From NCBI GenBank assembly GCA_965231145.1, contig OZ246420.1, positions 420,001-452,000 on the forward strand: a stretch of 32,000 nt of DNA, read 5' to 3'. Of this stretch, positions 142 through 31,793 are shown one piece after another. The notes under the pieces were generated by a model that made no database searches, was not told the origin of the DNA, and saw nothing but the letters and a program-made list of their open reading frames with translations. Position 1 is the stretch's first letter. Every line of letters starts with the position of its first letter. This DNA is from Candidatus Saccharimonadota bacterium. Its GTDB lineage: Bacteria; Patescibacteriota; Gracilibacteria; Absconditabacterales; Absconditicoccaceae. A program made the position numbers and the translations under genes.

Positions 142-168
142 ATAACTTACTTACTTATAAATATAGCA

Positions 169-236
169 GCAATTAGATTATAGATGTTAGATTATAGCAA
201 AAAGTTGCTAACATCTAAAATCCAACATCTAATTGC
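169..236. repeat. family-1 imperfect palindrome, copy a (GCAATTAGAT..TAGATGTTAGAT..TAGCA / TGCTAACATCTA..ATCTAATTGC)
   Basis: The 31-nt arms 169-199 and 206-236 pair at 25/31 positions by hand alignment. The copy lies between the M20 gene stop (245) and the ATG of the next minus-strand gene (141). Confidence 0.7.
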
Positions 237-244
237 TATGTGGA

Positions 245-1561
245 TTAGTTACTAAAGAACAATCTACTAAACTCCAATCCTTTTTCAACACACGATAGCC
301 TGAAGTTTTCTCCCACTCCGTGCATGTTGCAGTCTTCATTTGCTAGGTCGGCGATGATGACGCTTGCGCCGAGTACTTCTTGGAACATACCAGTCACAGG
401 AATAGCTGCGCCTACATACCTATAGACAGTCTCAGTATTGTACAGTTCTCCGAGGATCTTCGCCGCTCTTCCGATCTCGACATGTGAGAGGTCGATCATG
501 ATAGCAGGATATGGGTCGCTAGTCTCTAGTGTATAGTCAACGTAATCTGGTAGTTCTTGTGTAACCCACTCTGAAAATAATGCTATCATGTTTTCAGGAT
601 GTTGTCATGGAGCGAAACGAAAGTTCATTTTAATGGTTGTTGTTGCAGGGATCGCATTACGATAGCCATTACCCGTATAACCAGATTGGATACCACTTAT
701 TTGAATCGTTGGTAGTAGTCCATTTGCCGTGACCGGATCATATCCCTCCTGTACAACCAATTTTTTCATCCCTGTCATGTTCTTTACATTTTCTTCATGA
801 AAAGGAACAGTCTTATTATTTTGTCTCATTTCGTCAGTAATGACACCTACGCTATCATAGTAGCCCGGCACGAAGATTTCATTTTTTTCGTTATACAGCT
901 TTGAAAGCAACTTCGTTGCTTCGTATGCGCTGTTAGGAGCTATTCCTCCGAAGAGTCCACTGTGTAGATCGACGTTTGCAGTTTTGAGTGTCAGTGTCAT
1001 GTTGCAACCTCCTCTGAAACTTGCTCCAATAGTTGGCGTGGTGTGACCAATGATCTCGCCGTCACTTATTAATACAAGATCACACGAAAGTAAGTCTTTA
1101 TAGTCATCAACAAACTTTGCGAGAAATGGCGAACCGGTCTCTTCGTCTCATTCGATCATGAATTTAACGTTGTACTTTAGCTCCCCTTTCTTGATCAGAT
1201 CAATGATCGTGACGATATGTATCATAATCTGTCCTTTGTTATCGACGGCTCCGCGAGCGACAAGTTTATTGTCTTGGATAATGAGCTTGAATGGATCGTG
1301 CTCCCAGCCTTCGCTGATGTCAGCTGGCTGCACATCGTAGTGACCATAGACCAAATATGTTGGTAAGCTTGGATCGACAACATAGTGCCCATAGACTATA
1401 GGGTTACTGTAGCCAGTGATTGCTTGTGCTACAAAGCCATTGCTTTTGAGAAGATCGACTAAGAAGTGAGCAGTCTTTTCGAGCTCCGGTTTGAATTGTT
1501 CGTCTGTTGAGATTGAGCGAAAGGCAATAAATTGCTGCATTAGTTCTAAGTAGTTTTGCAT
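245..1561 (-). CDS. M20-family metallopeptidase (dipeptidase / ArgE-DapE-CPG2 type), 438 aa
   Basis: Track ORFs 1148..1642, 605..1000 and 245..589 are one frame joined by TGA at 1148-1150 and 605-607. The first junction reads FMIE-G-DEETGSP, the M20 metal-binding EGEEE.GS-type motif. Other motifs present are GHYDVQP and ARGAVDNKG. ATG 1561, TAA 245. Confidence 0.85.
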
Positions 1562-1642: not shown

Positions 1643-1846
1643 TTAATGATAACCAGGATGTACTTTCCCGGCGGTAACAACAATACTGTTATTACGTGCA
1701 GTTTTTTCATTTTGTTCATCTGCTTTGTCATCTGGCTTGTCCGATGAGTTTCTTGTACGTGCAAGATGAATGTCTTCATGAATAGCCCAATGCTTGTTCA
1801 AATGGTACTGCTCTGCTGGCTGCTGTTTTTTGTCTTTTGTGTACAT
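1643..1846 (-). CDS. hypothetical small hydrophilic protein (67 aa)
   Basis: Clean ATG..TAA ORF co-directional with the M20 gene. No recognisable motif. Confidence 0.4.
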   Translation of the reverse strand: MYTKDKKQQPAEQYHLNKHWAIHEDIHLARTRNSSDKPDDKADEQNEKTARNNSIVVTAGKVHPGYH

Positions 1847-1910
1847 AACTTTTTATTTTTGATGATGAGTAATTTTGTTTCAATCTATATAATAAAAAGT
1901 CCCCTGGTGC

Positions 1911-2014
1911 TTTCGCATAGGAGACTCGATTATTATCGTGATGACAGTAGTTGTCGGGCTAGAAGGTCTGTAAGTAATATGCCGGCAACTGTGTATCATT
2001 ATCTCTATGCGAAA
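1911..2014. other. about 104-nt long imperfect hairpin in a divergent intergenic region (ncRNA or palindromic element candidate)
   Basis: TTTCGCATAG (1911-1920) pairs perfectly with CTATGCGAAA (2005-2014). Inner pairings are AGA/TCT, GAT..ACAGT/ACTGT..ATC and AGTTG-T-CGG/CCG-G-CAACT, with an apical loop of about 22 nt. Confidence 0.3.
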
Positions 2015-2166
2015 ATCTGACATGATGATGCCACTTTCTCATAAATGATCTAATAATACAAACAGTCTTTTGCATAGAGTTTTTCTGTGTTGGATATTTT
2101 CTAAATTGTATTTCATTTATAAAAAACTACTATTGGGTTGTCAATACTATTTTAGTACGAAATTCT

Positions 2167-2754
2167 ATGATGATAGAAAGAAGCAAACGAGAGCCATTTG
2201 TTGAGGTGTTCTTCAATAAAAATAAAGAACTAAATCTTTCTGCTATCCGTGATGCAGATGGAATTTTTGTGAAACACGTTCTCGATTCTCTCGAAGTTCG
2301 TAAAGTAGAAAGTTGAAAGTTCGTAAAGTGAAATGAGGTAATTGATGTGTGAACAGGTGGATGAATTCCCCTGCTTCCATTGGCTATAGCATATCCTGAT
2401 GTACATTTCACAGGACTCGACAGTGTCAAAAAGAAAACAGTAGCTATTGCAGATATGGCTGCTACCTTGGGATTACATAATGTCGATGTCGTGTGGTCTC
2501 GCGCCGAAGAACATAAGAAACAGTATGACATACTGACGGCGCGCGCTATGGCATATATTGATGATCTTATGAAGCGATGCTATCACCTTGTAAAAAAAGG
2601 TGGACTCTTCGTCTTATATAAAATGTTTTCAGAGGAGGAAGAAGCAAGAATAGATGGTTACTGTGAACAGAGAAAGATGAAAGTCCTTAGTAAACACTAT
2701 TATAAATTATTTGAAGAAGACATTCAGAGAGTGATTTACGTTATACAGAAATAG
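2167..2754 (+). CDS. rsmG: 16S rRNA (guanine527-N7)-methyltransferase RsmG/GidB, 195 aa
   Basis: ATG 2167 to TAG 2752-2754. Four in-frame TGA at 2314, 2329, 2350 and 2362. The SAM-binding motif reads IDV-G-TGG-G-IPLLPLAI, with both marked Gly encoded by TGA. Upstream is the NLSAIRD..IFVKHVLDSL motif typical of RsmG. Confidence 0.85.
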
Positions 2755-2777
2755 AGGCGCTGTCGTCTCTTTTTTTT
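2753..2777 (+). terminator. intrinsic terminator after rsmG
   Basis: Stem AGAGGCG / CGTCTCT (one G-T pair), loop CTGT, followed by a T7 run. Confidence 0.6.
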
Positions 2778-2781
2778 GTAT

Positions 2782-2803
2782 AAAAAAACTCCCAATATGG
2801 GAG
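2782..2803 (-). terminator. intrinsic terminator after CDS 2807..3184
   Basis: CTCCC-AATAT-GGGAG hairpin preceded on the plus strand by A7, which is a U-run on the minus strand. Confidence 0.6.
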
Positions 2804-2806
2804 GTA

Positions 2807-3184
2807 TTAATAATATTCAATTTGAATAAGCCATTCTTTCTTGCCGATTTTGCGGGAATAAATACGATGAAACTTATAGGTCACATCCTCCAACGCTTCT
2901 CCGTAATCTTCTTCAATGGGACTTCTTTGTCTGACAATGTTGATTATCTTTCCTTCTCCCGGAGGAAAAGAATAATAACAATAACTTTGAGACATTGTAA
3001 TAAATGCAACAATTAAGAGGCCTAAACCGATTATCCGTTTGCATTGACCTGGAGATATATTACATGTCGGGCCAATAACCCAATACAACATACTCAGGAT
3101 AAAAATTCCTGCAATCATAGGAATAAGAATACGAGTTTTGAACACGTAAGCTTTTTTGGGATGTGAGAATAATAATGTGCTCAT
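2807..3184 (-). CDS. hypothetical membrane protein (125 aa)
   Basis: ATG 3184 (MSTLLFSHPKK...) was chosen because the longer track ORF start at 3259 lies inside the upstream terminator hairpin. Two hydrophobic helices. TAA 2807. Confidence 0.5.
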   Translation of the reverse strand: MSTLLFSHPKKAYVFKTRILIPMIAGIFILSMLYWVIGPTCNISPGQCKRIIGLGLLIVAFITMSQSYCYYSFPPGEGKIINIVRQRSPIEEDYGEALEDVTYKFHRIYSRKIGKKEWLIQIEYY

Positions 3185-3243
3185 AATTTTGTGTTTTGGG
3201 GGTTGGTTTAAAATGTTACACTTATGTTTGTATTTTTCAATAT

Positions 3244-3269
3244 AAAAAAACTCCGCCATATTGGCGGAG
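3244..3269 (-). terminator. intrinsic terminator (second of a tandem pair)
   Basis: 8-bp stem CTCCGCCA / TGGCGGAG with an A7 run on the plus strand. Confidence 0.6.
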
Positions 3270-3293
3270 TAAGATCGCGAGTATGCGTACCTA

Positions 3294-3318
3294 TAAAAAA
3301 ACCGCAGGCTAACCTGCG
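3294..3318 (-). terminator. intrinsic terminator overlapping the end of CDS 3309..3638
   Basis: CGCAGG-CTAA-CCTGCG hairpin with A8 on the plus strand. The true TAG stop (3309-3311) sits in the loop. Confidence 0.6.
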
Positions 3319-3638
3319 ATTGAGTTTTTTCATTGTTTCCAGCGCTTTCGATAGCTGATAAAGTATCCTGTAACAGCTATTAGATAGAATGTCTCTGCTC
3401 CTATTGGAATAAGAGCCCATATGCCAGCAAAAAATGCGACAATGCCTGTAATGATTAGGCATGCAATAATACTTAAGATAGCAGCATCTTTGGAAAAGGT
3501 CAAATATTCTTTGATGTTTCCATAGACTTCTGCCTCCCGAGGGAAGAATGGTGTAGTGAGAAGTTCAAAAGCATCTCCTGGTGAAAGGAAGTATGATCCA
3601 TATTCACCGATAAATATACGTATATTTTTTAGTATCAT
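3309..3638 (-). CDS. small membrane protein, PFFPR-motif paralog A (109 aa)
   Basis: ATG 3638. The track ORF ends at TGA 3330-3332, but under code 25 the frame continues as -G-KNSIAG to TAG 3309. It shares LLxxPFFPRxxExxGxxKEY plus two TM helices with the neighbouring gene 3726..4103. Confidence 0.55.
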
Positions 3639-3705
3639 ATGGTATGTGTCTTGGTGTACGTAAGAGCATAACCTTATGCGTGAGTAAATCAATAGCTGTA
3701 ATGAA

Positions 3706-3729
3706 AAAACTAAGGAGAATCCTCCTTAG
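3706..3729 (-). terminator. intrinsic terminator after CDS 3726..4103
   Basis: CTAAGGAG-AAT-CCTCCTTAG hairpin with an A6 run on the plus strand. It overlaps the TAA stop. Confidence 0.6.
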
Positions 3730-4103
3730 CTATTGGTTATATTTTGTGTTCGATATTTGCTTGGTGCTATTCCTTTGTTCCACCAGAATACTATGGTGAT
3801 AATATAGGTAAGCACCGTAGGAATGCCATATGTGGCAAAACATGTAATAGATGTCTCTATCCATGCCAATGGCGTCCATGATGTGAGTAATATTGCAAGA
3901 ACACAACTCATGCATAACCAAATAAGCAGTGCAAGTGCAGTGTATTTGCTATATTCCTTATACCTTCCTCTTAGCTCAAAGTGTCGTGGAAAGAAAGGAA
4001 CCAATAGTAGTTGTGGTGATTTTCTGAGAAGAGCAATAAACTTTTCAGTTCGTTTCTTAATTATCCCACGAAAACGAAGCAATATATAGAGTAAAGCTAA
4101 CAT
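3726..4103 (-). CDS. small membrane protein, PFFPR-motif paralog B (125 aa)
   Basis: ATG 4103 to TAA 3726. Contains LLLVPFFPRHFELRGRYKEY followed by two or three hydrophobic helices. It is a tandem paralog of 3309..3638. Confidence 0.55.
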   Translation of the reverse strand: MLALLYILLRFRGIIKKRTEKFIALLRKSPQLLLVPFFPRHFELRGRYKEYSKYTALALLIWLCMSCVLAILLTSWTPLAWIETSITCFATYGIPTVLTYIITIVFWWNKGIAPSKYRTQNITNS

Positions 4104-6599: not shown

Positions 6600-8459
6600 T
6601 TAGTCATCGAGGTAGCTGAAATCGTCGTCATCCTCCCCCCATCCTGTTGACTTCTCTTCATCGTCATCAGACACTTTAGGGAGTTTCCCTTTCCCTTTCT
6701 TTCATCCTTTGTTCATGAGCTCCATCTTTTCGATGTCATCTTCGATACCAAGGATTTTCTGGAGACCGATATGCTCCTTCAATTTCTGAAGAACCTTTTG
6801 CTCGATCTGTCTGACACGTTCACGAGTTACCTGAAACTCTTCACCAACCTGTTCAAGTGTATATTTAGGTCCATCGATACCATATCTCATCTTGATGATC
6901 TTTGCTTCACGTTCATCAAGCATGCCAAGTATGTATCCAAGATTGTTCTTAATGGCATCCTTTTCAGCAGCCTGGTCAGGTCTCATCGTGTTCTTATCCT
7001 CGATAAGGTCTCCGAGAGAGTCTTTTCCGTCATCACCTACTTCACTGTCGAGTGAGACATTTCCGAAGATCACTTCTTCGAGCTTCTTGATCTTTTTGAT
7101 GTTGAAGTTCAATTTTGCTCCGATCTCTTTTGATGTCGGTTCACGTCCGAGCTTTTGGAAGAGTTCCTGATACGCTTTGTTATAGCTGTTGATTTCATCG
7201 ATAAGATGTACCGGTATTCTTACGTGTTTGGTCATGTCGGCAATAGCCTTTGTAACCGACTGTTTGATCCACCATGTTGCATAGGTAGAAAATTTGAAAT
7301 CCTTATCCGGATCAAACTTTTCAATAGCTTTGATAAGACCAACATTTCCTTCTTGAATGAGGTCTGAGAAGCTTAGTCTCGATCCAAAAAATCTTTTTGC
7401 GATAGAGATAACGAGTCTGAGATTTGACTCAATAAGCTTTTTCTTTGCATTTTCATCTCCACGTCTTACACGGATAGCGATTGCTTTTTCCTCTTCTGCA
7501 TTTAACAGAGGGATCTTAGAAATATCGTTGAAGTAGAGCTTAATATGATCGTGATACTGCTTGTCATTGATCGTATATTTTTTCTCATAGAGCTCAATTT
7601 TTCCAAGTTTTGTAGCGCCGTTTTCTTTCTCTTTCTTGTTTTCTTGTTCGAAAATTTCTTCGATAGTATATATTTTGATGCTGAGTTTTTCAGCAAGCTC
7701 GTAGAGCTTTTCAACGGTTTTGAGTTTCGCGTCGAGATCGTCTACTTCCGTAAGGATTTCGTCTTCCGTGATTTGCCCTGTTTGAGATCCTTTCTTGAGC
7801 AGGTTTTGTAGTTCCGGAGTCAGTTCATTGATATCGTCGCTTAGTTTTTCCCAAAGCTGTTGTCTATTAACGGTTGATTTCTTCGCTACTTTTCCTCCGG
7901 CAGCTTTGGTATCAGCATTTTTCTTTGCTTCCTTGTCGGCAGCTACTTTATTTTTTGTTGCCTGGGCAGCACCGAGCTTTGTGAGTGTCGCAAGCTGTTC
8001 CTTCTTTTTGGCTTGCGCAGCTATCCTTACCTGCTTTTCAAGCATGTACTGATCACGCTTGCTAAGTCTCACTTCTTTTGCAGAGGGTCTTACAGTCGCT
8101 TTTCCAGTCGTCTTTTTCGCTGGCGTAACGACTTTTTTCGTCGTTTTTGCGATGACAGATTTCTTTGCAGATGCGGCAGGGTTTTTAGGAGCTGCTTTCT
8201 TTGCTTTTCCAACAACCTTTTTCGCTCATTTCTTTGAAACCGGCTTTGATACTTTTTTCGTTCCTCCAGTAGATTTCTTACTGGGAGCTTTTTTGCTAGT
8301 TTTCTGGGGAGCTGCTTTTTTCGTTGCCTTCTTCTCAGGTTTTTTAGGTGCAGCCTTTTTTACTTTTACTGGGGCTTTCTTTGTTGCCTTTTTTGGTACA
8401 ACTTTTTTAACAGGTTTTTTCTTGCTCGCCATCCATGGATTGTATAAATTAAAAGACAT
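6600..8459 (-). CDS. rpoD: primary-type sigma-70 factor RpoD with a long Lys/Ala/Pro-rich N-terminal extension, 619 aa
   Basis: ORF 6702..8072 carries region 2 (DLIQEGNVGLIKAIEKFDPDKDFKFSTYATWWIKQ) and region 4 (TLEQVGEEFQVTRERVRQIE). The frame is continuous upstream through TGA 8226-8228 into ORF 8226..8459 (KKPVKKVVPKKATKKAP...). It is continuous downstream through TGA 6702-6704 to TAA 6600 (acidic tail DDDEEK..GEDDDDFSYLDD). An alternative ATG lies at 8432. Confidence 0.85.
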
Positions 8460-8475
8460 GCATTTTTCTTAAGTA

Positions 8476-8566
8476 GCAGTTAGATGTTGCATTGTAGATG
8501 ATAGCATGAGTCGATCTTCGAATTGATAATTGAATTGCCAAAATCTAATATCTATAATCTCATTGC
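8476..8566. repeat. family-1 imperfect palindrome, degenerate copy b
   Basis: Arms GCAGTTAGATGTTGCATTGTAGATGATAGCA (8476-8506) and TGCCAAAATCTAATATCTATAATCTCATTGC (8536-8566) pair at about 19/31 positions, with a 29-nt central insert. The copy lies between the pheT stop (8581) and the rpoD ATG (8459). Confidence 0.45.
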
Positions 8567-8580
8567 TATATGGTAGTTTG

Positions 8581-21312: not shown

Positions 21313-21334
21313 ATCTTGCTAATTTTATAAAGTG

Positions 21335-21399
21335 GCAATTAGATGTTAGATTTTAGATATTGGCAGGATGCTACAATCTAACATCTATGATCTAATTGC
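21335..21399. repeat. family-1 imperfect palindrome, copy c (inverted orientation relative to copy a)
   Basis: The left arm GCAATTAGATGTTAGATTTTAGATATTGGCA resembles the reverse complement of the right arm of copy a (about 27/31). The right arm CTACAATCTAACATCTATGATCTAATTGC resembles the reverse complement of the left arm of copy a. The copy lies between the stop at 21408 and the trxA ATG at 21312. Confidence 0.7.
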
Positions 21400-21407
21400 T
21401 ATGTTTA

Positions 21408-21692
21408 TTAGTATGCTTCCGCAACATGTCCGTAACAAACATTGCGAACCATATCTTTGAGAGCTTGCATGACACCGTAAGAGAATTCCACGTATCATTT
21501 CACTGCCACGACTTCAAACTCTTCGAGTTCGTTCCATCCTGGTTTCATGCTGATGAGGAACTTGTGAGAGTTGATCTCCAGTACTACATCATACTTTCCT
21601 TCTTCCTTTTCATGGAAGATCGCTTTCATGTTGTTTCCTTGTACTGTGTGTCTGTCGAGAGTATCTTGTGTAAACAAAGCGGCTTGATACAT
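21408..21692 (-). CDS. hypothetical small protein (94 aa)
   Basis: ATG 21692. The track ORF ends at TGA 21495-21497, and under code 25 the frame continues as -G-YVEFSYGVMQALKDMVRNVCYGHVAEAY to TAA 21408. Confidence 0.5.
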
Positions 21693-23042: not shown

Positions 23043-23288
23043 GCGACAAGTCGCGTCTGCTATTGCTGTTTCCAGCTCATCAAAGTTGATTTTCGTTTTT
23101 TCAGTTTCATATTGTTGATTTTTGTGTTTGTGTCTGAATGAAATAGTAATGTCCTGAAGCTATAAGTCAATCGTAATTTCTATAGCTTTCTACGCCTAAA
23201 TACATAATTATCATATATACCTCAAAACTTAAACCTGAAACCTCAAATCGGATTTTAGTTTTAAGCTTTTAGTTTTTAGTTATTCGAT

Positions 23289-24023: not shown

Positions 24024-24033
24024 TACGCATATA

Positions 24034-24105
24034 GCATATAGCAGTTGGCAGATAGTAGATAACATTTGTTGCTATTTGCTAGCTGCTACTTGCAATATGC
24101 TTTTT
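24034..24105 (+). terminator. family-2 word-like palindrome acting as an intrinsic terminator
   Basis: GCATATAGCAGTTGGCAGATAGTAGATAAC pairs with GCTATTTGCTAGCTGCTACTTGCAATATGC at about 21/30 positions, followed by a T5 run. It lies 10 nt after the stop at 24023. Confidence 0.55.
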
Positions 24106-24127: not shown

Positions 24128-24988
24128 ATGAACTATTATCATGAGCCCGTTCGATTGGTTGAACCCGTTGGAAATAATGCTATTGCCTATGACGACAGAA
24201 TGGCTTTGGGCTCTCAGTGAAAACTCTTTATTCCTCAGCTGGTTACATGAACGTTGGATGATCTCGCTTTGTGAGATGAGATTGTTTTTGAGGAAGTCGA
24301 AAATGGAAAACTTATCTCGTGTAAGGGTCTACAATCATTACTCAAAATAGTACATAACTGAAAAGCCATTTACATCACAGACAATCATAATCACGCGTTA
24401 TACTTCCGGTACGACGCGCTCCACAACGGGCTTATTCAACCTGGAGCTATGCTCCTGCATATCGATCAGCATGCAGATTTTAATGAACCAAACTTTTATT
24501 TAAACTGAGAGAGCAAAGAGCTGAGAGCAGAGTGAAATACGGAAAAAATATTCAATAGAGAGGAAATGAGAAAAAGAGAAAATGAGGAAGCGTTGACTAG
24601 TGACCAGTGACTAGCAGCTAGTGACGATTATGACTTATGAGTTATTGCTGAATACGTGAATACACAAACACAGATAGCTTCTTTCATTAAGCCAGCATTA
24701 CACTCAGGACTTATTGGCGATTGCATTCAAATCAGAAGTGAGGCTAAGCTTCAGGAGATAATCCACAATAATATTATTGAGAATTGAGCCTTGAGAATTG
24801 GGAATAGTATTGTAGATATCGACATTGATTTCTTCGCTCATGAAACAGATGTGACTCATAAGATGTCACTTCTTCGCCAGCTCCTCTCCTCTGCCTCAGT
24901 GGCGACTATTGCCACGTCGCCTTATTTTATCGATCAGCAAAGAGCAATCGAGCTTGTTCGTGAGTTGTTACAAGAGAGTGAAAAATAA
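24128..24988 (+). CDS. UPF0489-like protein (arginase/deacetylase-fold superfamily candidate), 286 aa
   Basis: ATG 24128 to TAA 24986-24988. Nine in-frame TGA at 24218, 24245, 24269, 24359, 24506, 24533, 24608, 24638 and 24785. Motifs K-AIYITDNHNHALYF, LLHIDQHADFNEP, VDIDIDFF and IATSPYFID. Confidence 0.5.
24503..24640 (+). repeat. in-frame low-complexity word-repeat insertion in the UPF0489-like CDS (family 2)
   Basis: Encodes N-G-ESKELRAE-G-NTEKIFNREEMRKRENEEALTSDQ-G-LAASDDYDL-G. The core 24584-24625 is 32/42 identical to a segment inside rsmH (29908-29949, reverse complement) and sits in the same reading frame. Confidence 0.55.
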
Positions 24989-25008
24989 GGATAATTTTAT
25001 ATCTGAGA

Positions 25009-25036
25009 TTGACAAATAATATAAATTGATTACCAT
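25009..25036 (+). promoter_or_regulatory. sigma-70-type promoter TTGACA-N16-TACCAT
   Basis: Ends 32 nt upstream of ATG 25068. Confidence 0.5.
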
Positions 25037-25067
25037 TTTTGGATCACAAACTAAAAACAAACCCCAT

Positions 25068-25334
25068 ATGAAATCAAATCATTATTCTAATCACAACAGG
25101 TGCTATAAAGGCGACAGTCGTTCTTCCGGTGGTAATGTCATTTGCATAGCTTCTCTTGCAGATGATGGCAAGAAATTTGTAAATCATAAAGCTCTACAAA
25201 AAGCTGCAAAACTGATAAAAAAAGGTGGTGCAGGTACAGCTCAGCGACCGAAGTTGCCCTCTATCACCGGAGAAATAAGTGATGCCTTTCATGAACTAGG
25301 CAAAGGCAGAAATACCGCTCTCCATCGTATTTGA
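25068..25334 (+). CDS. small basic hypothetical protein (88 aa if translation ends at TGA 25332)
   Basis: MKSNHYSNHNRCYKGD...GKGRNTALHRI. The frame reaches TGA 25332-25334 and is followed 24 nt later by a strong terminator. Under strict code 25 it stays open to TAA 25800. Confidence 0.45.
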   Translation: MKSNHYSNHNRCYKGDSRSSGGNVICIASLADDGKKFVNHKALQKAAKLIKKGGAGTAQRPKLPSITGEISDAFHELGKGRNTALHRI

Positions 25335-25358
25335 ACTTATTTTTATCACTTTTCAAAG

Positions 25359-25389
25359 GTACGACCGTTATCATGGTCGTACTTTTTTT
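25359..25389 (+). terminator. strong intrinsic terminator
   Basis: 8-bp stem GTACGACC / GGTCGTAC with an 8-nt loop and a T7 run. Confidence 0.75.
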
Positions 25390-25390
25390 A

Positions 25391-25418
25391 TTGACAAACA
25401 GCTTTGTATGCATACAAT
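25391..25418 (+). promoter_or_regulatory. sigma-70-type promoter TTGACA-N16-TACAAT
   Basis: Lies immediately after the terminator and ends 28 nt upstream of ATG 25446. Confidence 0.6.
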
Positions 25419-25445
25419 TTCCCCTACACCATTAAATTCATAGGT

Positions 25446-25802
25446 ATGGCAAAGAAACATTATTTATGTAAAAAAAAGAATGAATTTAAGCCAATCACAT
25501 TGTCGCCCGGTGTTGAAAAAGCACTCCGTGACAAAAAAATAAGGCTTGAACAAAAAGAATTGGGGCAAAAACAACAGCGCCAACCTGGTCCAGAGCCAAG
25601 AGGCATGCTCCCTGGTTATAGCTGTAAAAAAGTGGAGAGAATATTGGCTGGAGAGCTGACATTTGAAAAAGGATTAAAGGCCGCGGAGCCATTAATCCTT
25701 CCTAATCCTACCCTTGTATTCTCTCGGTTGCAAGTAAGCAGACATGGGCGACCATTGCACTCACGTGCCGTTAAAGTTGCCTCATTTACCCTTATGGCTT
25801 AA
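25446..25802 (+). CDS. small basic hypothetical protein (118 aa)
   Basis: MAKKHYLCKKKNEFKPITL.... TAA at 25800-25802. GC-richer than average. T-run terminator region downstream. Confidence 0.5.
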   Translation: MAKKHYLCKKKNEFKPITLSPGVEKALRDKKIRLEQKELGQKQQRQPGPEPRGMLPGYSCKKVERILAGELTFEKGLKAAEPLILPNPTLVFSRLQVSRHGRPLHSRAVKVASFTLMA

Positions 25803-25872
25803 AAGCCCATTAAGAGCGATCGGAACCCCGAGAGCTCTTTTTTTATAGAAAAAGGGTCTTTTTGCTCTATTT

Positions 25873-25901
25873 TTGCATTTTACAGCCAATCTGGTTATAA
25901 T
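25873..25901 (+). promoter_or_regulatory. sigma-70-type promoter TTGCAT-N17-TATAAT
   Basis: Upstream of the lipase gene starts at 25935 and 25953. Confidence 0.45.
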
Positions 25902-25952
25902 AAGATATATATAATTTATGATTTTTCTTCCGGAATGGGTTTTACATCTGTT

Positions 25953-26792
25953 ATGAAAAAAGTGTGAGCTGCGCTTGGTATCTCTTCGGTGGAAGAGGTC
26001 GAAGCAACAAGAAAGGCTGCAAATGAGAAGCCGCTTATTTCTGGTAAAGAAAATGAGGTGCTGAAGGAGACAAAAAGCTATTTTTCCAAGGATTATATGG
26101 ATAAACAGTGGACCACAGTAAAAAATGGATTTGCATCAGTTTTCAATAAAGTTTTTGATGAAGATACAATCAATCTTGATCCTCAGGACACCCCATGTGC
26201 CTATATTTCCGATAGAATTTATCTCAATCCTTTCGAGCGCCCAAGACATATCTTTGGGTATGAACTCGACGAAAAGTATAACGATATTGAGTCTGCGCTT
26301 TATGTAAATCATACCAATAAGACCTGGATCCTTGGATATAGAGGAACAGAAATCACGGAAGTAAAAGATTATATGAGCGATTTGCATATCCTTTTTGGTA
26401 CGCAGGCATGGAATACAAGATTTAACGCCTCTGTTCAAAGTTATGAAAATGCGAAAAAGGTATATCCTGACTATCATTCGGTAGTAACCGGTCATTCACT
26501 CGGTGGAACCATTGCGTATTTTATTGCCCAAAAGTTTAATCCGGATCGTTGTGTCGCTTTCAACCCTGGATCAAGCGCAAACCCAACCTTTGCGCAGCTC
26601 ATCGCTGATACACACAATCAAAAGCCATGGACAAGACATGTTTTTACATATCGTATGTCTCGTGACCCTATTTCATCTTTGAGTGTTATCGGTTATACAA
26701 GAAGCTTCCGTACTCGTAAGTTGAGTCCGATAGCTCTTCATCGTGTTGCAAATTTCTGTACGATCAAGGATGTAAGTAAGGACGTTTACTAG
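25953..26792 (+). CDS. class-3 (GxSxG) lipase-like alpha/beta hydrolase, 279 aa
   Basis: Nucleophile elbow VTGHSLGGTIAYFIAQ. Start at ATG 25953 (MKKV-G-AALGISSVEEV, with one TGA at 25965) or ATG 25935. The track start at GTG 25989 is possible only under a standard reading. TAG at 26790-26792. Confidence 0.7.
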
Positions 26793-26805
26793 TTTCTAAA
26801 TGTTA

Positions 26806-26833
26806 TTGAAAAAGGGAAATGTATGGCTACAAT
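26806..26833 (+). promoter_or_regulatory. sigma-70-type promoter TTGAAA-N16-TACAAT
   Basis: Overlaps the track ORF start at 26819, which favours ATG 26855. Confidence 0.5.
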
Positions 26834-26854
26834 ACGGCTCTAAACATATTTCTT

Positions 26855-27409
26855 ATGAGTATAACCAACAAAAAACAGCACCCCTTTGATAAGAGGTATG
26901 GGAATACTCATATAGAAAATATATGTTTACTCCTTCTTCTTATTGCCATCGATCTGTTCATCTTTAGTCGTGAACATTTGCGAGCGTCAGCAGGATGGAC
27001 TTTTATGTGCATCATAGTGATGTATGTATTTATCCTTGTTCGCCCTGCTCTACTACGTCTCTCAGTATTCTCAAACATGGGAATGCGAATAAAAAAAATA
27101 AAACTTTTCCTCAAGGCTCAATTCTTTCAACTTGGGAAAGTTGCTATCACCCAACCCCCCTTCTATAGGTATTCGATTGTATTTGCAGGAATTATCGTAG
27201 GAGGATTATTCAATTATCTTGGTATAGATAACATGCAACAGGAAGATACAAGGTACGTGATCGTTCCATGTACGGTTGGCTCTCTCTTATTTGTGTTATT
27301 TACTGTTATTCCTCTTATAGGGATATATCTCTATACAAAGAGACGTAAGAAAAGATTATTAGCCTGACCGTTCTGGTTAGGCTTTTTTTTATGCGGTAAA
27401 TATGTATAA
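26855..27409 (+). CDS. multi-pass membrane protein (170 aa to TGA 27365; 184 aa to TAA 27407)
   Basis: MSITNKKQHPFDKRYG..., about 4 hydrophobic helices, basic tail TKRRKKRLLA. TGA 27365-27367 lies in the 5' arm of the terminator stem. Under code 25 the frame extends as -G-PFWLGFFLCGKYV to TAA. Confidence 0.55.
27361..27390 (+). terminator. intrinsic terminator
   Basis: 9-bp stem AGCCTGACC / GGTTAGGCT (one G-T pair), loop GTTCT, T8 run. Confidence 0.7.
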
Positions 27410-27432
27410 TTAGCGGTTGAGAAAAATCTTCC

Positions 27433-27482
27433 GTCCACATTTTAGAGTGGACACCTCCTTTGCAAAAGGAGGCTTCTATTGA
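27433..27482 (+). repeat. twin-hairpin element, copy 1 (5' of the dus-type gene)
   Basis: GTCCAC-ATTTTAGA-GTGGAC, then CCTCCTTT-GCA-AAAGGAGG, then CTTCTATTGA. Confidence 0.7.
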
Positions 27483-27492
27483 TTATAATAAG

Positions 27493-28578
27493 ATGATACG
27501 AGGTTTAGCCCCTATGGATGGAATAACAAACGCTTCTTACCGCATCGTCGTGAAGCGTATTTTTGACAAATATGCAAATCCTCACCCTCATATAGCTGAG
27601 GGAGCTCCTTTACAAAAGGAGCCTTCTATTGACGCCTTACGAATGCGAACTGAGTTCATGAATGCAGAAGGCTATGTGCGCCAGCCACAGCGTTTGGTGC
27701 ATCATATCATGAGAACAGAATTTGAGAACCAAACGATAGCGCAGATCTACTGAGGAGATCATGAAGATTTGATACAGACAGCGAAAGATATTGTTGCAAA
27801 GTATCCTGGCTTTGCTGGTATTGAACTGAATATTTGATGCCCATCACCGAAGGTGATGTCGTGCGGTGGTGGGGCTGGTATGATGAGAGATAAAGCCAAA
27901 ACGCTCGAGTTGATCGAGCGTTTGAGAGATGCTGTCTACCCAATCCCATTTAGTATAAAGACGCGTGCAGGATTGACCGATGATGATAAGGCTGCACAGA
28001 AAGAGTTTATCGTGGCTGCGGCGAAGTTTTGTAGGACGATTACGATCCATGGAAGAACATATAAGCAGTGACACTCAGGAAGTGTCGATCGGGAGTACTT
28101 GTATGATGTGAAAAATCGCGTAGGTGACTCCTGTCTTATCATCGGTAATGGAGGCGTGAAATCATATGAGGATGCACTGACAAAGAAAGGGAACCTCGAT
28201 GGTGTTATGATAGGACAAGCTGCGATTGCGGATCCATGGATATTTATTGGTCATACGCCTACTCTGGCAGAACGTCATGAAACGATACTCTTTCATCTGA
28301 AACTGATGATTATTGCGTATGATTACTACAATAAAAATCTGCATTTCACAGAAATATTTCAACAGCCGTCATATGAACAGTGGATGAAAGAAGTTGAAGA
28401 GTTTGATGTGACGCGTTATGATATAGGAAAGTCAGTGATTGAGTTTAGAAAATATCTGTTCAACTACGTCAATGGTCTTGTCGGTAACAGAGATTTCAAA
28501 AATGTGGTTGCGACAATTAGAGAGTATGAACCGTTGGTTGAAGCGATAAATACGTTCTTTAGCTGATTTGAACAATAG
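27493..28578 (+). CDS. tRNA-dihydrouridine synthase (Dus family), 361 aa
   Basis: ATG 27493 to TAG 28576-28578. In-frame TGA at 27751, 27835, 28069 and 28564 join track ORFs 27460..27753, 27853..28071 and 28099..28566. Motifs: LAPMDGITNASYR, QIY-G-GD, GIELNI-G-CPSPKV (the Dus xxN.GCP motif, Gly = TGA), and HGRTYKQ-G-HSG. Confidence 0.85.
27585..27632 (+). repeat. twin-hairpin element, copy 2 (in frame inside the dus-type CDS)
   Basis: CCCTCA-TATAGC-TGAGGG, then GCTCCTTT-ACA-AAAGGAGC, then the identical CTTCTATTGA. Both stems keep their pairing through compensatory changes relative to copy 1. Encodes ..PHIAEGAPLQKEPSID. Confidence 0.7.
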
Positions 28579-28581
28579 AAA

Positions 28582-28604
28582 AAGGCCCCGTCATAGTGGG
28601 CCTT
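28582..28604. terminator. bidirectional intrinsic terminator between the dus-type gene and the ftsL-like gene
   Basis: AAGGCCC-9 nt-GGGCCTT, flanked by A-rich and T-rich runs. Confidence 0.6.
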
Positions 28605-28619
28605 TTCTTATGGGATATA

Positions 28620-29003
28620 TTAATTCTCTAAGCGCTCTCCCGTATAAGAAACTTTCATGATGATCTTATCGAGCGTGAAATTGTGGGTATCTCTTTCACT
28701 GTCGAGATACTTGTTACCGCTCATCACATACTCCCATACTCTTTTTTGTTCTTCCGTGTTTTTTATTGCAATCAAGCTATATTCAAACTCGATCTTATCG
28801 AGGTCTTTTTGTTGTTGTCTTAAGAAAAATCCTAGTGTCGACCCCTGGTTTACGAAGTAGATATAGACACCAATAAAAAATAGTACCAATCCTCCAATGG
28901 CTCATACTTTTATGTATTCAACTAGTTTCTTATTTGCCCTGAGTCTTTTCTGGAGCTTCAAATACTCTCTTGCGACTGACTTGGCTATGGGTAACTTATT
29001 CAT
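28620..29003 (-). CDS. FtsL-like single-pass cell-division protein candidate (127 aa)
   Basis: ATG 29003 to TAA 28620, with one TGA at 28902. Basic N-terminus, one TM helix (LVLFFIGVYIYFV), coiled C-terminus. Its position directly downstream of rsmH matches dcw clusters. Assignment rests on synteny and architecture only. Confidence 0.45.
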
Positions 29004-29127
29004 TAACTAAGTTTATAAAGTTCGTAAAGTCGAAAGTATAAACTACATATACGGTTTCAAAAGTTTCTTTCAATCTCCTTTACTATTTATAATTGACATC
29101 CTCTTTAATTTGTAATTCGTTATTATT

Positions 29128-30105
29128 TTATGCTACCCTCTCAATGATCCTAAACTTTGCACTTCTTGCTGCTCTATTACTCTTTACCTCGAGGTAATGC
29201 GGAGCGATAACCTTTTTATTGTAGAGGACAAACGAAGGGTTTTCATCAATTATTTTCTTGAAAGCGAGCTTTACGATGCGGTCTTCGATGCTATGATATG
29301 TCATGATAGCGCATCTTCATCATACATTGAGTGCAGCGGGAAATTTCTCCAGAAATGTGATAAGCTCTCCCAGCTCATTATTAGTCTCTATTCTTAAGCA
29401 CTGAAAGACTACGGCCATCTGCTCTTTTCTAATGCCTTTATTTCTCAGTGTGTTATTGAGCTCATGTGTGGTTTCGATCTTCTTCTCCGCTCTTTTTTCG
29501 ATGATAGCATCTGCCATATACAGCCCACTTGTCGGCGCAAAATCACCGTAGGTGGTGAACATCGTTGCAAGCTTTTCACGAGAGTATGTATTTACCACAT
29601 CTGCTGCACTCTGCCCACTACTCTGGTCAAAACGCATATCCAGTGGCGCGTCGTACAGAAATGAAAACCCACGGTCAGGATCTTTAAAATGTTCCATATT
29701 TACTCCAATATCCAGTAGGATATAATCAGCTCATGCTATCCCCTCTTTTTTCAAAATCTCATCAATATTTTTATAACTATCACGTACAAATCTTATATTC
29801 GCATGGTACTTTTCTACTAGCGCTTTGCCTTTTTCGAGCATCTTTTCATCGCGATCTATGGCTATTATCCTAACTGATGGATCATATGTCATAGCTCATC
29901 ATATATTGTCGCTAGCTGCTAGCTGCTCGCTGCTAGTCAATGATTCCTCCGAATTTAATTGTGCTTTGTGAATTGTACTTTGTAAATTGTTAAGTATGTA
30001 CTCGACATGTCCTCCATGCCCAAAAGTACCGTCGACATATACTTTTCGGTCGACAGGCATAGAAGCAAGAGTCTCTTTCGCCATAACTGGCTGGTGACGT
30101 AACAT
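29128..30105 (-). CDS. rsmH: 16S rRNA (cytosine1402-N4)-methyltransferase RsmH/MraW, 325 aa
   Basis: ATG 30105 to TAA 29128. In-frame TGA at 29899, 29731, 29320 and 29317. Motifs: VDGTFGHGGH, IIAIDRD, LLDIGVN..FKDPDRGFSF, and LNV-G-G-RCAIMTYHSIEDRIVK, where the conserved GGR glycines are a tandem TGA-TGA. Confidence 0.85.
29902..29991 (-). repeat. in-frame low-complexity word-repeat insertion in rsmH (family 2)
   Basis: Encodes NNLQSTIHKAQLNSEESLTSSEQLAASDNI between the GHGGH motif and the AIDRD strand, where E. coli RsmH has only about 6 residues. The DNA is built from about 14-nt near-repeats (TACAAAGTACAATT/CACAAAGCACAATT) and GCTAGCAGC words. Confidence 0.55.
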
Positions 30106-30139
30106 AAGGCTAACTAACTTATAAAGTTGTAGAGCAATT

Positions 30140-30181
30140 GGCAGCTAGCAGTTAGCATATCCCCTGCTAGTTGCTACCTGC
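30140..30181. repeat. family-2 word-like palindrome upstream of rsmH
   Basis: GCAGCTAGCAGTTAGCA - TATCCCC - TGCTAGTTGCTACCTGC, pairing at 14/17. The flanking TGGCAG / CTGCCA can extend the stem. Confidence 0.55.
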
Positions 30182-30237
30182 TATAATCTACCTGCCATAT
30201 TAGTGAAATAAGGCTCAAAAACCACTATAAGTTACAA

Positions 30238-30265
30238 TTGACTTAGATAAGCCGCTCAGTACAAT
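30238..30265 (+). promoter_or_regulatory. sigma-70-type promoter TTGACT-N16-TACAAT with a conserved leader
   Basis: Paralogous to 30773-30800. The leader TTTAACCCTGTCGATCTCGACAAGCGTCATTAA is conserved in the second cassette. Confidence 0.6.
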
Positions 30266-30325
30266 TTAACCCTGTCGATCTCGACAAGCGTCATTAAAAA
30301 TTAATCACAAATCTAAACACATTTT

Positions 30326-30703
30326 ATGAAAAAAGCATTCTTATTGTTTGCAGCAAGCTTACTAACTACTACATGCGCTGTAGCCGCAAAACGCATCACA
30401 GTGGATGCGGCTATGAAGCAAATCGCATCTGTTCTTCCGCAGCAGGGACCATCTACAAAATGGCTCTACATTGAAGCGGGTAAAGAGACCTGTAAAGTGT
30501 TCAATAGCACAGACGGTCATACTCATGAATTTACCCTTTCTCATGTCGTATGGAAATACGATGAATTGACAGGGAAAATACAGAAAAACACTTCTGTATC
30601 TAAGAAAGCGGCTCGTACTATCCGGCGTTTTTGTCGTGATATAAGCGAAAACGACTATTCCGTCGAGTATGTCTCTAAAGCGCAGGCTGAATGTATGAAC
30701 TAA
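30326..30703 (+). CDS. secreted/lipoprotein-like hypothetical protein (125 aa)
   Basis: Signal-peptide-like N-terminus MKKAFLLFAASLLTTTCAVAA. TAA at 30701-30703. No TGA. Confidence 0.6.
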   Translation: MKKAFLLFAASLLTTTCAVAAKRITVDAAMKQIASVLPQQGPSTKWLYIEAGKETCKVFNSTDGHTHEFTLSHVVWKYDELTGKIQKNTSVSKKAARTIRRFCRDISENDYSVEYVSKAQAECMN

Positions 30704-30746: not shown

Positions 30747-30772
30747 TTTTCTAAAAGAAAAACCAGTTATCA

Positions 30773-30800
30773 TTGACTTATATTGCTGGCTCCGTACAAT
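30773..30800 (+). promoter_or_regulatory. sigma-70-type promoter TTGACT-N16-TACAAT with a conserved leader
   Basis: Same hexamers, spacing and downstream leader as 30238-30265. Confidence 0.6.
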
Positions 30801-30866
30801 TTACTCCTGTCAATATCGACACGTTCATTAACATTTATCACGAATCAAAAACACCAAACAATTACA

Positions 30867-31793
30867 ATGAAAAAAACACTATTGTTGCTCGTTTTCGCCT
30901 TTGCGCTTTGTTCTAATACTGCTACAGCGCAGCAGGACTCTCTGCTTGATATTATGAGGGGGAGAATGAAAGAATATAAAGACTCTACTTACACCATCGA
31001 AGTTTCGCCGCAAACGGCTGACTTCATGCAATTGCTGACGGCTATTACGTTGGCTGGCGATGTGCCTCCCAAAATAAATTACTTCTTACAGCCTAGTAGT
31101 TCAACACGATTTATTATTGTGCCCCGTATGTTCAAATACCCAGCATTCATAGGCGCTGATTATTATGAGTGTGATTATCGGTACGGTCAGCTAAAGTGGC
31201 ATTACAACATGCATAACCAATCATGTGAAAATGTTACTATTCGTGTGAAAAGCGGTAATAGGTATACGCAGCGCGGTCAGGTGCTTGATATACAGGAGGG
31301 CCTCTACTCTTTGCTTGAGGACGTTAAACATAAACGTTTATACGAAATTCCTGTTATAGACGTTCGCAAGAAGAGTGAGTTGGAAATACTCCCTTCACCA
31401 GTCTTTACTTTTTTGGAACCTGAATACTTTAAGTATGATAGTGTCTTGGGCTTCTATAGCACCACTGTTCAGCCTGATGTAGAGGGTTCGGCTGAGCTTT
31501 TTCAGCTACTTAACAGCATTACTATGAAAACAAAAGGAAGTATCAGTAAAAATACCTACCAACTTGTTACACCTACGAAAGATATTCCTATTCAGGAGGT
31601 AATAGGAAGTTACTATTATCAGTTCGGAGATATAAGTTGGTATGCAGAACATGGTAAGGTTACTCAAGTACATATCTATACTTCCAATATCTCGAAACTT
31701 ATGGTGGAGGGTATTTTGTATCAGCATGTTCTGTCACTTGTGGCAAACGACATTCAGCAGGACAAATGGACGGTCGACAACCGTAAATTATAA
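30867..31793 (+). CDS. secreted hypothetical protein (308 aa)
   Basis: ATG 30867, MKKTLLLLVFAFALCSNTATAQQ (signal peptide). TAA at 31791-31793. No TGA. Confidence 0.6.
   Translation: MKKTLLLLVFAFALCSNTATAQQDSLLDIMRGRMKEYKDSTYTIEVSPQTADFMQLLTAITLAGDVPPKINYFLQPSSSTRFIIVPRMFKYPAFIGADYYECDYRYGQLKWHYNMHNQSCENVTIRVKSGNRYTQRGQVLDIQEGLYSLLEDVKHKRLYEIPVIDVRKKSELEILPSPVFTFLEPEYFKYDSVLGFYSTTVQPDVEGSAELFQLLNSITMKTKGSISKNTYQLVTPTKDIPIQEVIGSYYYQFGDISWYAEHGKVTQVHIYTSNISKLMVEGILYQHVLSLVANDIQQDKWTVDNRKL

Follow-up and report, generated by a model that had tools for sequence, protein, structure and literature searches.

Two conserved genes in a 32,000-nt stretch of an Absconditabacterales genome (contig OZ246420.1 of assembly GCA_965231145.1, positions 420,001 to 452,000; the window in the following) carry extra in-frame segments that share a homologous core: rsmH, the gene of the 16S rRNA m4C1402 methyltransferase, and an open reading frame (ORF) of the PF12640/UPF0489 family, referred to here as ORF A. 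The defining property of both inserts is a 7-nt periodicity, which had been overlooked in a first-pass annotation of the same DNA that likened them to Rickettsia palindromic elements (RPEs). With somewhat better than even confidence, we take the inserts to be coding copies of a repeat family of this genome, in which a TAG recurs with each 7-nt unit (heptamer) and which also builds long hairpins in the spacers near start codons (Table 1). It is relevant to what follows that TGA is a sense codon in the window. ORFs that are fragmented under code 11 join into full-length genes under code 25, and TGA occupies conserved glycine positions, for instance the GG of NVGGRCAIM in the window's RsmH and, in the relative L066, both glycines of the FGHGGH motif of RsmH. 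The named homologs of rsmH and ORF A come from Absconditabacteria (SR1) or Gracilibacteria.

The shared core occupies positions 24584-24625 (+) in ORF A and 29908-29949 (-) in rsmH, where 32 of 42 nucleotides are identical without gaps. A repeat search lengthens the pair to 45 nt (24584-24628 and 29905-29949, 76% identity), the second longest inverted pair of the window, and local alignment carries the similarity a few bases further 3', into GAC-[AG]AT-TATGA; the common part amounts to ~45-50 nt within inserts of 75-96 nt in total. With dinucleotide-shuffled windows as the null, the observed identity was reached in none of 200 shuffled windows (maximum 27) and with none of 500 shuffled queries (maximum 28), and the Smith-Waterman score of 41 compares with a null maximum of 26. 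These shuffles rule out a chance similarity of the cores and bear out the first-pass annotation, which had reported the same repeat in frame in both genes and had named composition-matched shuffles as the comparison to make. An nhmmer profile of both cores recovers these two sites alone (E ~1e-14). The scan, also proposed in that annotation as a way to find further copies, returned none in ~39 kb of this genome, the span made up of the window and ~7 kb added beyond it by Logan contigs of the runs ERR4405439 and ERR4405441. A candidate third copy at 508-549, in an M20-peptidase gene, matches at 25 of 42 positions (nhmmer E = 0.43) in another frame, and was judged to be ordinary protein sequence with a chance resemblance.

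Each core consists of five heptamers with a TAG every 7 nt, so that successive TAGs fall in all three frames, and the sole unit without TAG in either copy is the one that lies in frame (GAG in rsmH, CAG in ORF A). On the coding strand, only one frame of each core is free of stops and the other two are closed by TAG. The common reading frame, in which the cores translate as EEALTSDQGLAASD (ORF A) and EESLTSSEQLAASD (rsmH), is thus real, as previously noted, while being forced by the stop codons and no independent coincidence; the UGA-glycine codon reported within one copy is likewise present, as the in-frame TGA at 24608. The open frame, together with the loss of TAG in the in-frame unit only, may point to selection for translatability. 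Units 1, 4 and 5 are common to both cores in the same order, and units 2-3 are homogenized within each copy, a mosaic that we read as probable common descent followed by local conversion rather than independent growth.

It is conceivable that the encoded peptide, EE[SA]LTSxxxLAASD, is itself a selected module, i.e. a functional short linear motif such as a binding or localization tag, given that 10 of its 14 residues are identical, that both copies are in frame and that both host genes are intact. We consider this highly improbable: the two copies agree as closely in DNA as in protein, the differences include non-conservative ones (S/D, E/Q, Q/G), the frame is dictated by the stop codons, the segment is predicted at low confidence, and a search of the insert region among 5.8 billion proteins retrieved only one RsmH fragment.

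In rsmH, the insert expands a variable loop between the helix that follows GHGGH and the strand IIAIDRD. RsmH residues 41-72 have no counterpart in Thermotoga maritima MraW (1m6y), the alignment with which is interrupted between the helix that follows GxGGH and the strand IIGID; from this alignment and from the class I methyltransferase fold, the insert is predicted to lie at the surface. The segment is missing from all 18 aligned SR1/Gracilibacteria orthologs. For the closest relative, P0241 on contig L064 (82% amino acid identity), BLASTN aligns 1618-1731 with 30104-29991 of the window (88%) and 1776-3914 with 29871-27638 (74.5%), leaving a loop of 44 nt opposite 119 nt in the window; in P0008 on L066 (~76%), the corresponding lengths are 64 and 139 nt. 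Both differences are 75 nt, exactly 25 codons, and the lack of the segment in such close relatives dates the insertion as recent. The insertion described in the first-pass annotation is therefore confirmed, at 25 codons relative to L064 and L066 instead of the ~30 given there. Its 5' part is an in situ tandem duplication of 14 nt of sequence that is native in L064, as seen in the codons AAC ATT CAA GAG GAA in L064 versus AAC AAT TTA CAA ... TCG GAG GAA in the window. The near-tandem words that had been noticed ahead of both inserts are found by Tandem Repeats Finder (TRF), with period 14 at 29957-29990 in rsmH and period 7 at 24508-24532 in ORF A. Side by side with this, several RsmH orthologs (P0037, P0077, P0103) have long lineage-specific inserts of their own at other loops, e.g. 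DPGSSPGWQS...ISPGWQGS or, in P0103, one of 50 residues, as do the ORF A orthologs P0164, P0218 and P0232, and loop insertions appear common in SR1/Gracilibacteria lineages.

The ORF A insert lies in the first variable loop of its protein and is similarly confined to this lineage. In the AlphaFold2 model of ORF A, a check that the first-pass annotation had suggested, the mean predicted local distance difference test (pLDDT) score is 86.8; it drops to 46-62 in the 10-residue blocks of residues 131-170, i.e. at the insert, and exceeds 90 in the surrounding fold. The ortholog alignments, 18 sequences per gene, together with the two RsmH relatives that lack exactly 25 codons, exclude the possibility that the segments are ancestral residues. 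Both inserts are thus lineage-specific, in frame, recent and homologous, and the alignment that had been called for fell in favor of insertion. At the same time, RsmH keeps all 58 invariant columns of a 19-sequence alignment and ORF A all 24 of its family alignment; since every family-invariant column is retained, both are probably working genes rather than pseudogenes.

An uncultured metagenomic source, in which simple repeats can be misassembled, also calls for weighing an artefact, be it chimeric contigs or pseudogenes. To this we attach an almost negligible probability, as the independent Logan assemblies of the two runs are 100% identical to the window at both loci, the frames are open and the conserved motifs intact. 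In addition, in the ENA assembly ERZ22666135, a 97%-identical strain, the spacing from the RsmH N-terminal ORF to the methionine after the insert agrees within about one codon, as judged from gene coordinates. The contigs L002 and L003, considered as further strains, are 100% identical to the window and were rejected as the same genome, and the '97%' of P0121 is merely tryptophan versus glycine at TGA codons, not a strain difference.

Table 1. Coordinates of the two insert-bearing genes, their heptamer arrays and the intergenic hairpins (window positions)
Feature	Position	Strand	Details
rsmH (16S rRNA m4C1402 methyltransferase)	29128..30105	-	325 aa under code 25, 5 in-frame TGA; Pfam PF01795 E = 3.7e-72; PDB 1m6y E = 4e-37
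rsmH expanded variable loop	29872..29990	-	119 nt vs 44 nt in closest relative; net +25 codons
rsmH core	29905..29949	-	GAGGAATCA + TTGACTA GCAGCGA GCAGCTA GCAGCTA GCGACAA; in-frame unit GAG, not TAG
14-nt tandem duplication AATTGTACTTTGTA	29957..29990	-	TRF score 54, 2.4 copies, 90% matches; extends native rsmH loop sequence
ORF A, PF12640 (UPF0489 / FlmR_OhkR_N) family	24128..24988	+	286 aa, 9 in-frame TGA; Pfam E = 2.3e-8; 1372 homologs
ORF A first-loop insert NTEKIFNREEMRKRENEEALTSDQGLAASDDY	~24536..24631	+	~32 codons, approximate bounds; missing from 18/18 aligned orthologs
ORF A core	24584..24628	+	GAGGAAGCG + TTGACTA GTGACCA GTGACTA GCAGCTA GTGACGA; in-frame unit CAG, not TAG; TGA (Gly) at 24608
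Second, unrelated heptamer array in ORF A	24769..24800	+	TTGAGAA TTGAGCC TTGAGAA TTGGGAA; encodes ENGALRIGN, in-frame TGA = Gly
hp24027	24027..24100	+	TAGCAG/TAGTAG-type heptamer arms; minimum free energy -40.4 kcal/mol, z = -7.2, 0/200 shuffles
hp30135	30129..30195	+	TAGCAG-type arms; z = -3.1; ~30 nt upstream of rsmH start
TAGAT-type heptamer hairpin	157..249	.	same superfamily, different unit
TAGAT-type heptamer hairpin, long loop	8464..8579	.	
TAGAT-type heptamer hairpin	21323..21412	.	fills divergent intergenic spacer
Heptamer hairpin, CTCAAAA x4 facing TTTTAGT x4	23213..23285	.	TRF period 7 at 23219-23247 and 23253-23281; just upstream of ATG 23289

The periodicity extends over the whole inserts, where nucleotides 7 positions apart are identical at a rate of 0.50-0.51, compared with a background of 0.27 +/- 0.06 in 100-nt windows of sequence; within the two cores, this lag-7 autocorrelation is 0.50-0.58. 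A blind joint scan of the window for lags 7 and 14 returned exactly eight regions, namely six intergenic hairpins and the two inserts, while the control lags 8/16, 6/12 and 5/10 returned 2, 1 and 0 regions. Likewise, 13 of the 28 TRF rows of the window have a period of 7 or 14, and pairs of TAG and CTA are spaced by 7 nt in 18-20 cases versus ~5 at other spacings. TRF detects period 7 in the rsmH core itself (29911-29936, 3.7 copies, 89% matches); the units of the ORF A core are too diverged for the program, yet remain in heptamer register. Heptamers also occur in a 32-nt direct repeat of the window (2294-2325 and 29018-29049, 81% identical) with the unit AAAGTTG, one copy of which lies inside the gene 2167-2754 and the other in the gap that separates rsmH from its downstream neighbor.

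The hairpins connect the inserts to the rest of the family. Their ends lie 4-30 nt from the start codons at 8459, 21312, 21426, 23289, 24128 and 30105, and the two of the TAGCAG type, hp24027 and hp30135, stand directly upstream of the two insert-bearing genes; hp24027 begins 4 nt past the upstream stop codon, leaving 28 nt between its end and the start of ORF A. The two cores can be aligned with the four arms of these two hairpins in one heptamer register. The rsmH core matches an arm of hp24027 at 18 of 22 positions and one of hp30135 at 15 of 16, values that none of 200 shuffles reached. The shared words that had been noticed between the inserts and the palindromes at 24034-24100 and 30140-30181 are therefore substantiated for the rsmH copy and weaker for that of ORF A (p ~0.07). 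In L066, the site of hp30135 spans 20 nt, compared with 104 nt in the window, between conserved flanks; the hairpin is missing there, and is thus itself a recent gain. L064 likewise lacks both hp30135 and the rsmH insert, and has no heptamer-periodic region anywhere. An 8-nt target-site duplication around hp30135, AGCCTTAT, was considered and rejected, as its upstream copy aligns to native L066 sequence that is not identical.

The remaining hairpins use other units. Those of the TAGAT type, ~70-110 nt long, follow the scheme AGCAATTAGATnnTAGATnnTAGATnnTGGCA - loop (3-60 nt) - TGCTAnnATCTAnnATCTAnnATCTAATTGCT and are dispersed, with three copies in the window (157-249, 8464-8579, 21323-21412) and two on contig L004 (884-975, 1742-1814), which belongs to a different species whose ORF A protein is ~63% identical. 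They take up almost the whole spacer beside a start codon, in one case a divergent spacer, and are conserved in sequence between the two species. Their stems are made of 5-bp paired blocks with 2x2 internal loops at variable positions, and compensatory changes are seen in 0 of 26 pairs, so that it is the sequence and not the structure that is conserved. The hairpin at 23213-23285 folds better on the minus strand (z = -2.3). None of these hairpins is readily taken for an ordinary terminator, a possibility we rejected because GC-rich terminators are abundant separately (19 versus 6.7 expected) and two of the hairpins lie between divergent genes; nor did the window yield a known RNA family (Rfam) or a tRNA.

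Given these palindromes, it has to be asked whether a mobile element of the RPE or miniature inverted-repeat transposable element (MITE) kind, a heptamer hairpin or half of one, was transposed and landed independently in frame in rsmH and ORF A. Such an origin would account for two homologous in-frame copies in unrelated genes, for a related hairpin whose presence varies among close relatives, its flanks being conserved, and for the dispersal of the TAGAT hairpins and their sequence conservation across two species without compensatory pairs (0/26); it could also draw on the complete in-frame heptamer hairpin in the ORF A gene of L004 and on an in-frame GC-rich palindrome with flanking direct repeats of 14-15 nt in L019 (both described below). 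The coding copies of the window, however, are not palindromic. The inserts fold like their shuffles (z = +0.62, +0.75, -0.33 and -1.17 against 200 shuffles), with a weak stem of 8-9 bp only, on which grounds we reject a palindromic element within the genes. No terminal inverted repeats were seen in the sequence flanking the inserts, and the sole candidate for a target-site duplication failed on the L066 alignment; the similarity is limited to ~45-50 nt of inserts that differ in length and content, and part of the rsmH insert is a tandem duplication in situ. Moreover, no transposase and no gene resembling the REP-associated tyrosine transposases (RAYT) is present among the precomputed Pfam hits of the neighboring genes, and what was found in ~39 kb comes down to two coding copies and four related hairpin arms, with no further copies there or in the collection scans described below. 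A mobile element therefore seems fairly unlikely to us. Of the RPE-like reading in the first-pass annotation, the segments themselves stand as homologous, in frame, lineage-specific, tolerated and related to palindromes, whereas the notion that they are copies of a mobile palindrome was not borne out (z from +0.75 to -1.17, no terminal inverted repeats or target-site duplication, a shared part of ~45-50 of 75-96 nt, two copies only). The combination of 7-nt periodicity and an in situ 14-nt duplication instead favors slippage or template copying over the transposition of a discrete element.

That heptamer arrays enter coding loops in this clade is not confined to the two inserts. The second variable loop of the PF12640 protein holds an in-frame heptamer array in four species, each time a different one: the TTGAGAA-type array of the window (TRF period 7 at 24776-24805, 4.3 copies), TAAAAAC/GTTTT in L004 (2368-2445), CTGAATT x5 in L019 (2650-2715) and AGCCGAA x4 in L020 (10605-10660). 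The L004 array is a complete inverted pair that forms an in-frame coding hairpin (z = -2.8, 0/200 shuffles), and a complete inverted pair is also seen at this loop in P0122 and P0129, as judged from the protein alignment. Another example comes from a UvrD/PcrA-like helicase ~5-7 kb past the right end of the window (L021 9287-9322), where an AAACTCA x5 array, of the same unit as the arms of the hairpin at 23213-23285, sits in a loop between the motifs TFTNKAA and WIGTFH and adds 6 residues relative to the L001 ortholog. Since the arrays in the ORF A loop differ across species and the helicase carries one of its own, such arrays evidently form time and again where coding loops of this clade tolerate them. 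A palindrome of another kind is found in the ORF A ortholog P0133, where an in-frame GC-rich sequence, AACCTGCCTGCCGGTAGGCAAGGTT (L019 2480-2560, encoding LPAGRQG), is flanked by the 14-15-nt direct repeats TTCCCGATTCCCAA and TTCCTGATTCCCAA (FPIP...FPIP); the ortholog P0134 has the duplicated FPIP without the palindrome, which resembles the insertion or excision of a small element with target duplication.

The readiness with which this protein acquires arrays raises the question whether the two inserts of the window grew by slippage independently and converged, their likeness stemming from a genome-wide preference for CTAGCAG-like units and not from common descent. The four different units in the ORF A loop would fit this well, as would the units homogenized within each copy (TAGCAGC versus TAGTGAC) and the CTAGnnn arrays of many unrelated bacteria, with gaps of 3, 10 or 17 nt in 29 of 43 metagenome matches; furthermore, the ORF A insert is GA-rich and contains GAGGAA two times, which lessens the weight of this word as a shared flank. 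Yet the same order of variant units recurs at both loci, including unit 1 (TTGACTA) and unit 4 (GCAGCTA), each of which is atypical for one of the arrays, the similarity is far above shuffles and continues 3' of the cores, and both events fall within one short lineage interval. Convergence is thus an unlikely explanation in our view.

We therefore return to coding copies of the genome's own heptamer family, for which the following course may be proposed. A replication-linked process would repeatedly make and lengthen heptamer arrays, by slippage of 7 or 14 nt or by template switching between nearby arrays, acting between genes and, less often, where proteins have tolerant surface loops. In the lineage of the window, a five-unit TAGCAG-type array would have arisen in, or been copied into, the loop between helix A and strand 2 (alphaA-beta2) of rsmH, and a homologous array would have settled, 5.3 kb away and in inverted orientation, in ORF A's first variable loop, the likeliest route being ectopic copying between the two loci or from a hairpin arm. 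As a TAG every 7 nt closes all three frames, the survivors would need a change of the in-frame TAG to GAG or CAG and a length that is a multiple of 3, which leaves a single shared reading frame. The outcome would be a translated and probably disordered loop extension of 25-32 residues that is neutral or at least tolerated. The copying mechanism and its direction are the steps that we infer.

Several points weigh against this account. Slippage alone fails to explain the same order of variant units at two loci, so that a copying step is needed, of which we found no direct trace: apart from GAGGAA, the two loci have no native flank in common. The likeness of the ORF A core to the hairpin arms is weak, the presence or absence of a hairpin between relatives fits a mobile element equally well, and the census of copies rests on ~39 kb of the genome. 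An 8-mer shared with the native L064 loop, GAAGCGTT, was considered as evidence for copying from rsmH to ORF A and discarded (p = 0.55), and the residues EES shared with P0008 are no guide to direction either, as they use different serine codons.

Taken together, the observations would also allow a farther-reaching interpretation, albeit a rather improbable one, namely that the SR1/Absconditabacteria clade harbors an undescribed self-propagating repeat system of inverted, TAG-phased heptamer arrays that close all six frames and feed new protein segments. Its arrays would occupy start-codon spacers, coming and going between close relatives and keeping their sequence across species; arms or whole hairpins would enter surface loops of housekeeping proteins and become domesticated by mutation of the single in-frame TAG. 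The reassignment of TGA to glycine would have made TAG the phased stop of the family and left TGA-phased arrays, such as that at 24769-24800, translatable.

To see how widely similar arrays occur, GTDB genomes, JGI metagenomes and IMG/VR, none of which includes the source genome, were scanned with the pattern TTGACTAGN{3,17}CTAGCAGCTAG, i.e. TTGACTAG-N(3-17)-CTAGCAGCTAG. The scan yielded 13 GTDB genome matches, 41 JGI metagenome loci and one IMG/VR locus, with no SR1 copy and no coding core among them, and gaps of 3, 10 or 17 nt were found in 9 of the 13 genome matches as well as in the metagenome matches mentioned above. Arrays of the form (CTAGnnG)n are present in unrelated bacteria, among them candidate phyla radiation (CPR) members, Terriglobia, Dialister, Anaerobiospirillum and soil metagenomes (L006-L062, e.g. 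L010, L014, L027, L044, L048 and L049); several stop a few bases before an ATG, and some form inverted pairs around a spacer of ~25-30 nt. A separate palindrome, ACGTTGACTAGCTGCTAG...CTAGCAGCTAGTCAACGT, recurs on four of the JGI contigs (L025, L031, L038, L053) as part of a longer and conserved inverted repeat (…GCATCTACG / CGTAGATGC…ATACCGTATGCTGCATATACAGTAA), which looks like a mobile element of another organism. In the literature searched, a limited basis for a negative, we found no description of such repeats in Absconditabacteria or Gracilibacteria.

Heptanucleotide repeats as such are familiar, the short tandemly repeated repetitive (STRR) heptamers of cyanobacteria being further ones. 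In many bacteria, no other class of long simple-sequence repeats is as abundant, and a close match to the present arrays is provided by the TAACTGA direct repeats of Beggiatoaceae, Cyanobacteria and Bacteroidetes, which stand immediately before start codons, put a stop into each of the three frames and are proposed to originate by polymerase slippage (PMC4679880). Both have a 7-nt unit repeated 2-6 times, are mostly intergenic near start codons with occasional copies in ORFs, and in forward orientation put a stop into all three frames. In the window, however, the stop is TAG, since TGA encodes glycine; two arrays usually face each other as an inverted repeat and fold into a hairpin of 60-110 nt, the unit drifts between copies (TAGAT, TAGCAG, TTTTAG), and forward copies lie in the middle of housekeeping genes with the in-frame stop mutated, whereas TAACTGA copies are found at ORF ends or reversed.

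RPEs (Ogata et al., 2000, summarized in PMC10969869) are the best-known case of genes colonized in frame and, as far as described there, share with the present inserts a short repeat in frame in unrelated conserved genes as well as between genes, a tolerated extra peptide and intact hosts. According to the same account, RPEs are palindromic, ~100-150 bp long and grouped into defined families, with tens of copies in a genome; here, by contrast, the core is ~45 nt, the two known coding copies are non-palindromic and built of heptamers, and part of one insert is a tandem duplication in situ. As in Borg proteins (PMC9879509), fast-arising, lineage-specific tandem repeats add low-complexity and probably disordered segments, with the difference that coding units of Borgs are divisible by three, while a 7-nt unit is read in three frames and must dodge its own stops. 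The hairpins, finally, resemble repetitive extragenic palindromic (REP) sequences, bacterial interspersed mosaic elements (BIME) and REP doublets forming hairpins (REPIN) in being dispersed, imperfect intergenic palindromes whose sequence is conserved and which relatives have gained or lost (PMC3116915). Unlike these, they have no RAYT-type transposase in sight nearby, their arms are 7-nt periodic with regular internal loops, and some copies extend into coding sequence.

Two further observations concern the surroundings of these genes. A stretch of ~130 nt is duplicated at 30215-30346 and 30750-30887, 535-541 nt apart and before two adjacent genes; detected as direct repeats of 72 and 32 nt with 72% identity, it takes in a site resembling a promoter (TTGACT-16-TACAAT), the 5' leader and the first part of an N-terminus that looks like a signal peptide (MKKA...). 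On L004, positions 3520-3800 form a structured-looking non-coding stretch between a terminator and the next gene that may be an RNA gene.

In practical terms, gene calling under the standard code will be disrupted by such inserts and by in-frame TGA codons, as in the fragments P0006, P0008 and P0241, and the analysis flags an abundant family of start-codon hairpins for which translation insulation, regulation or protein binding are possible roles. For the inserts themselves, the two genes provide a dated case in which a bacterial simple-repeat family would have added segments of 25-32 residues to conserved housekeeping proteins, even though the unit length is indivisible by three and every unit brings a stop codon; to become coding, such an array needs one in-frame TAG loss and a length divisible by 3. 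This would tie the RPE-like colonization of genes in frame to ordinary heptamer-repeat dynamics rather than to transposition, and points to a cheap source of protein novelty in the reduced and recoded genomes of CPR bacteria.

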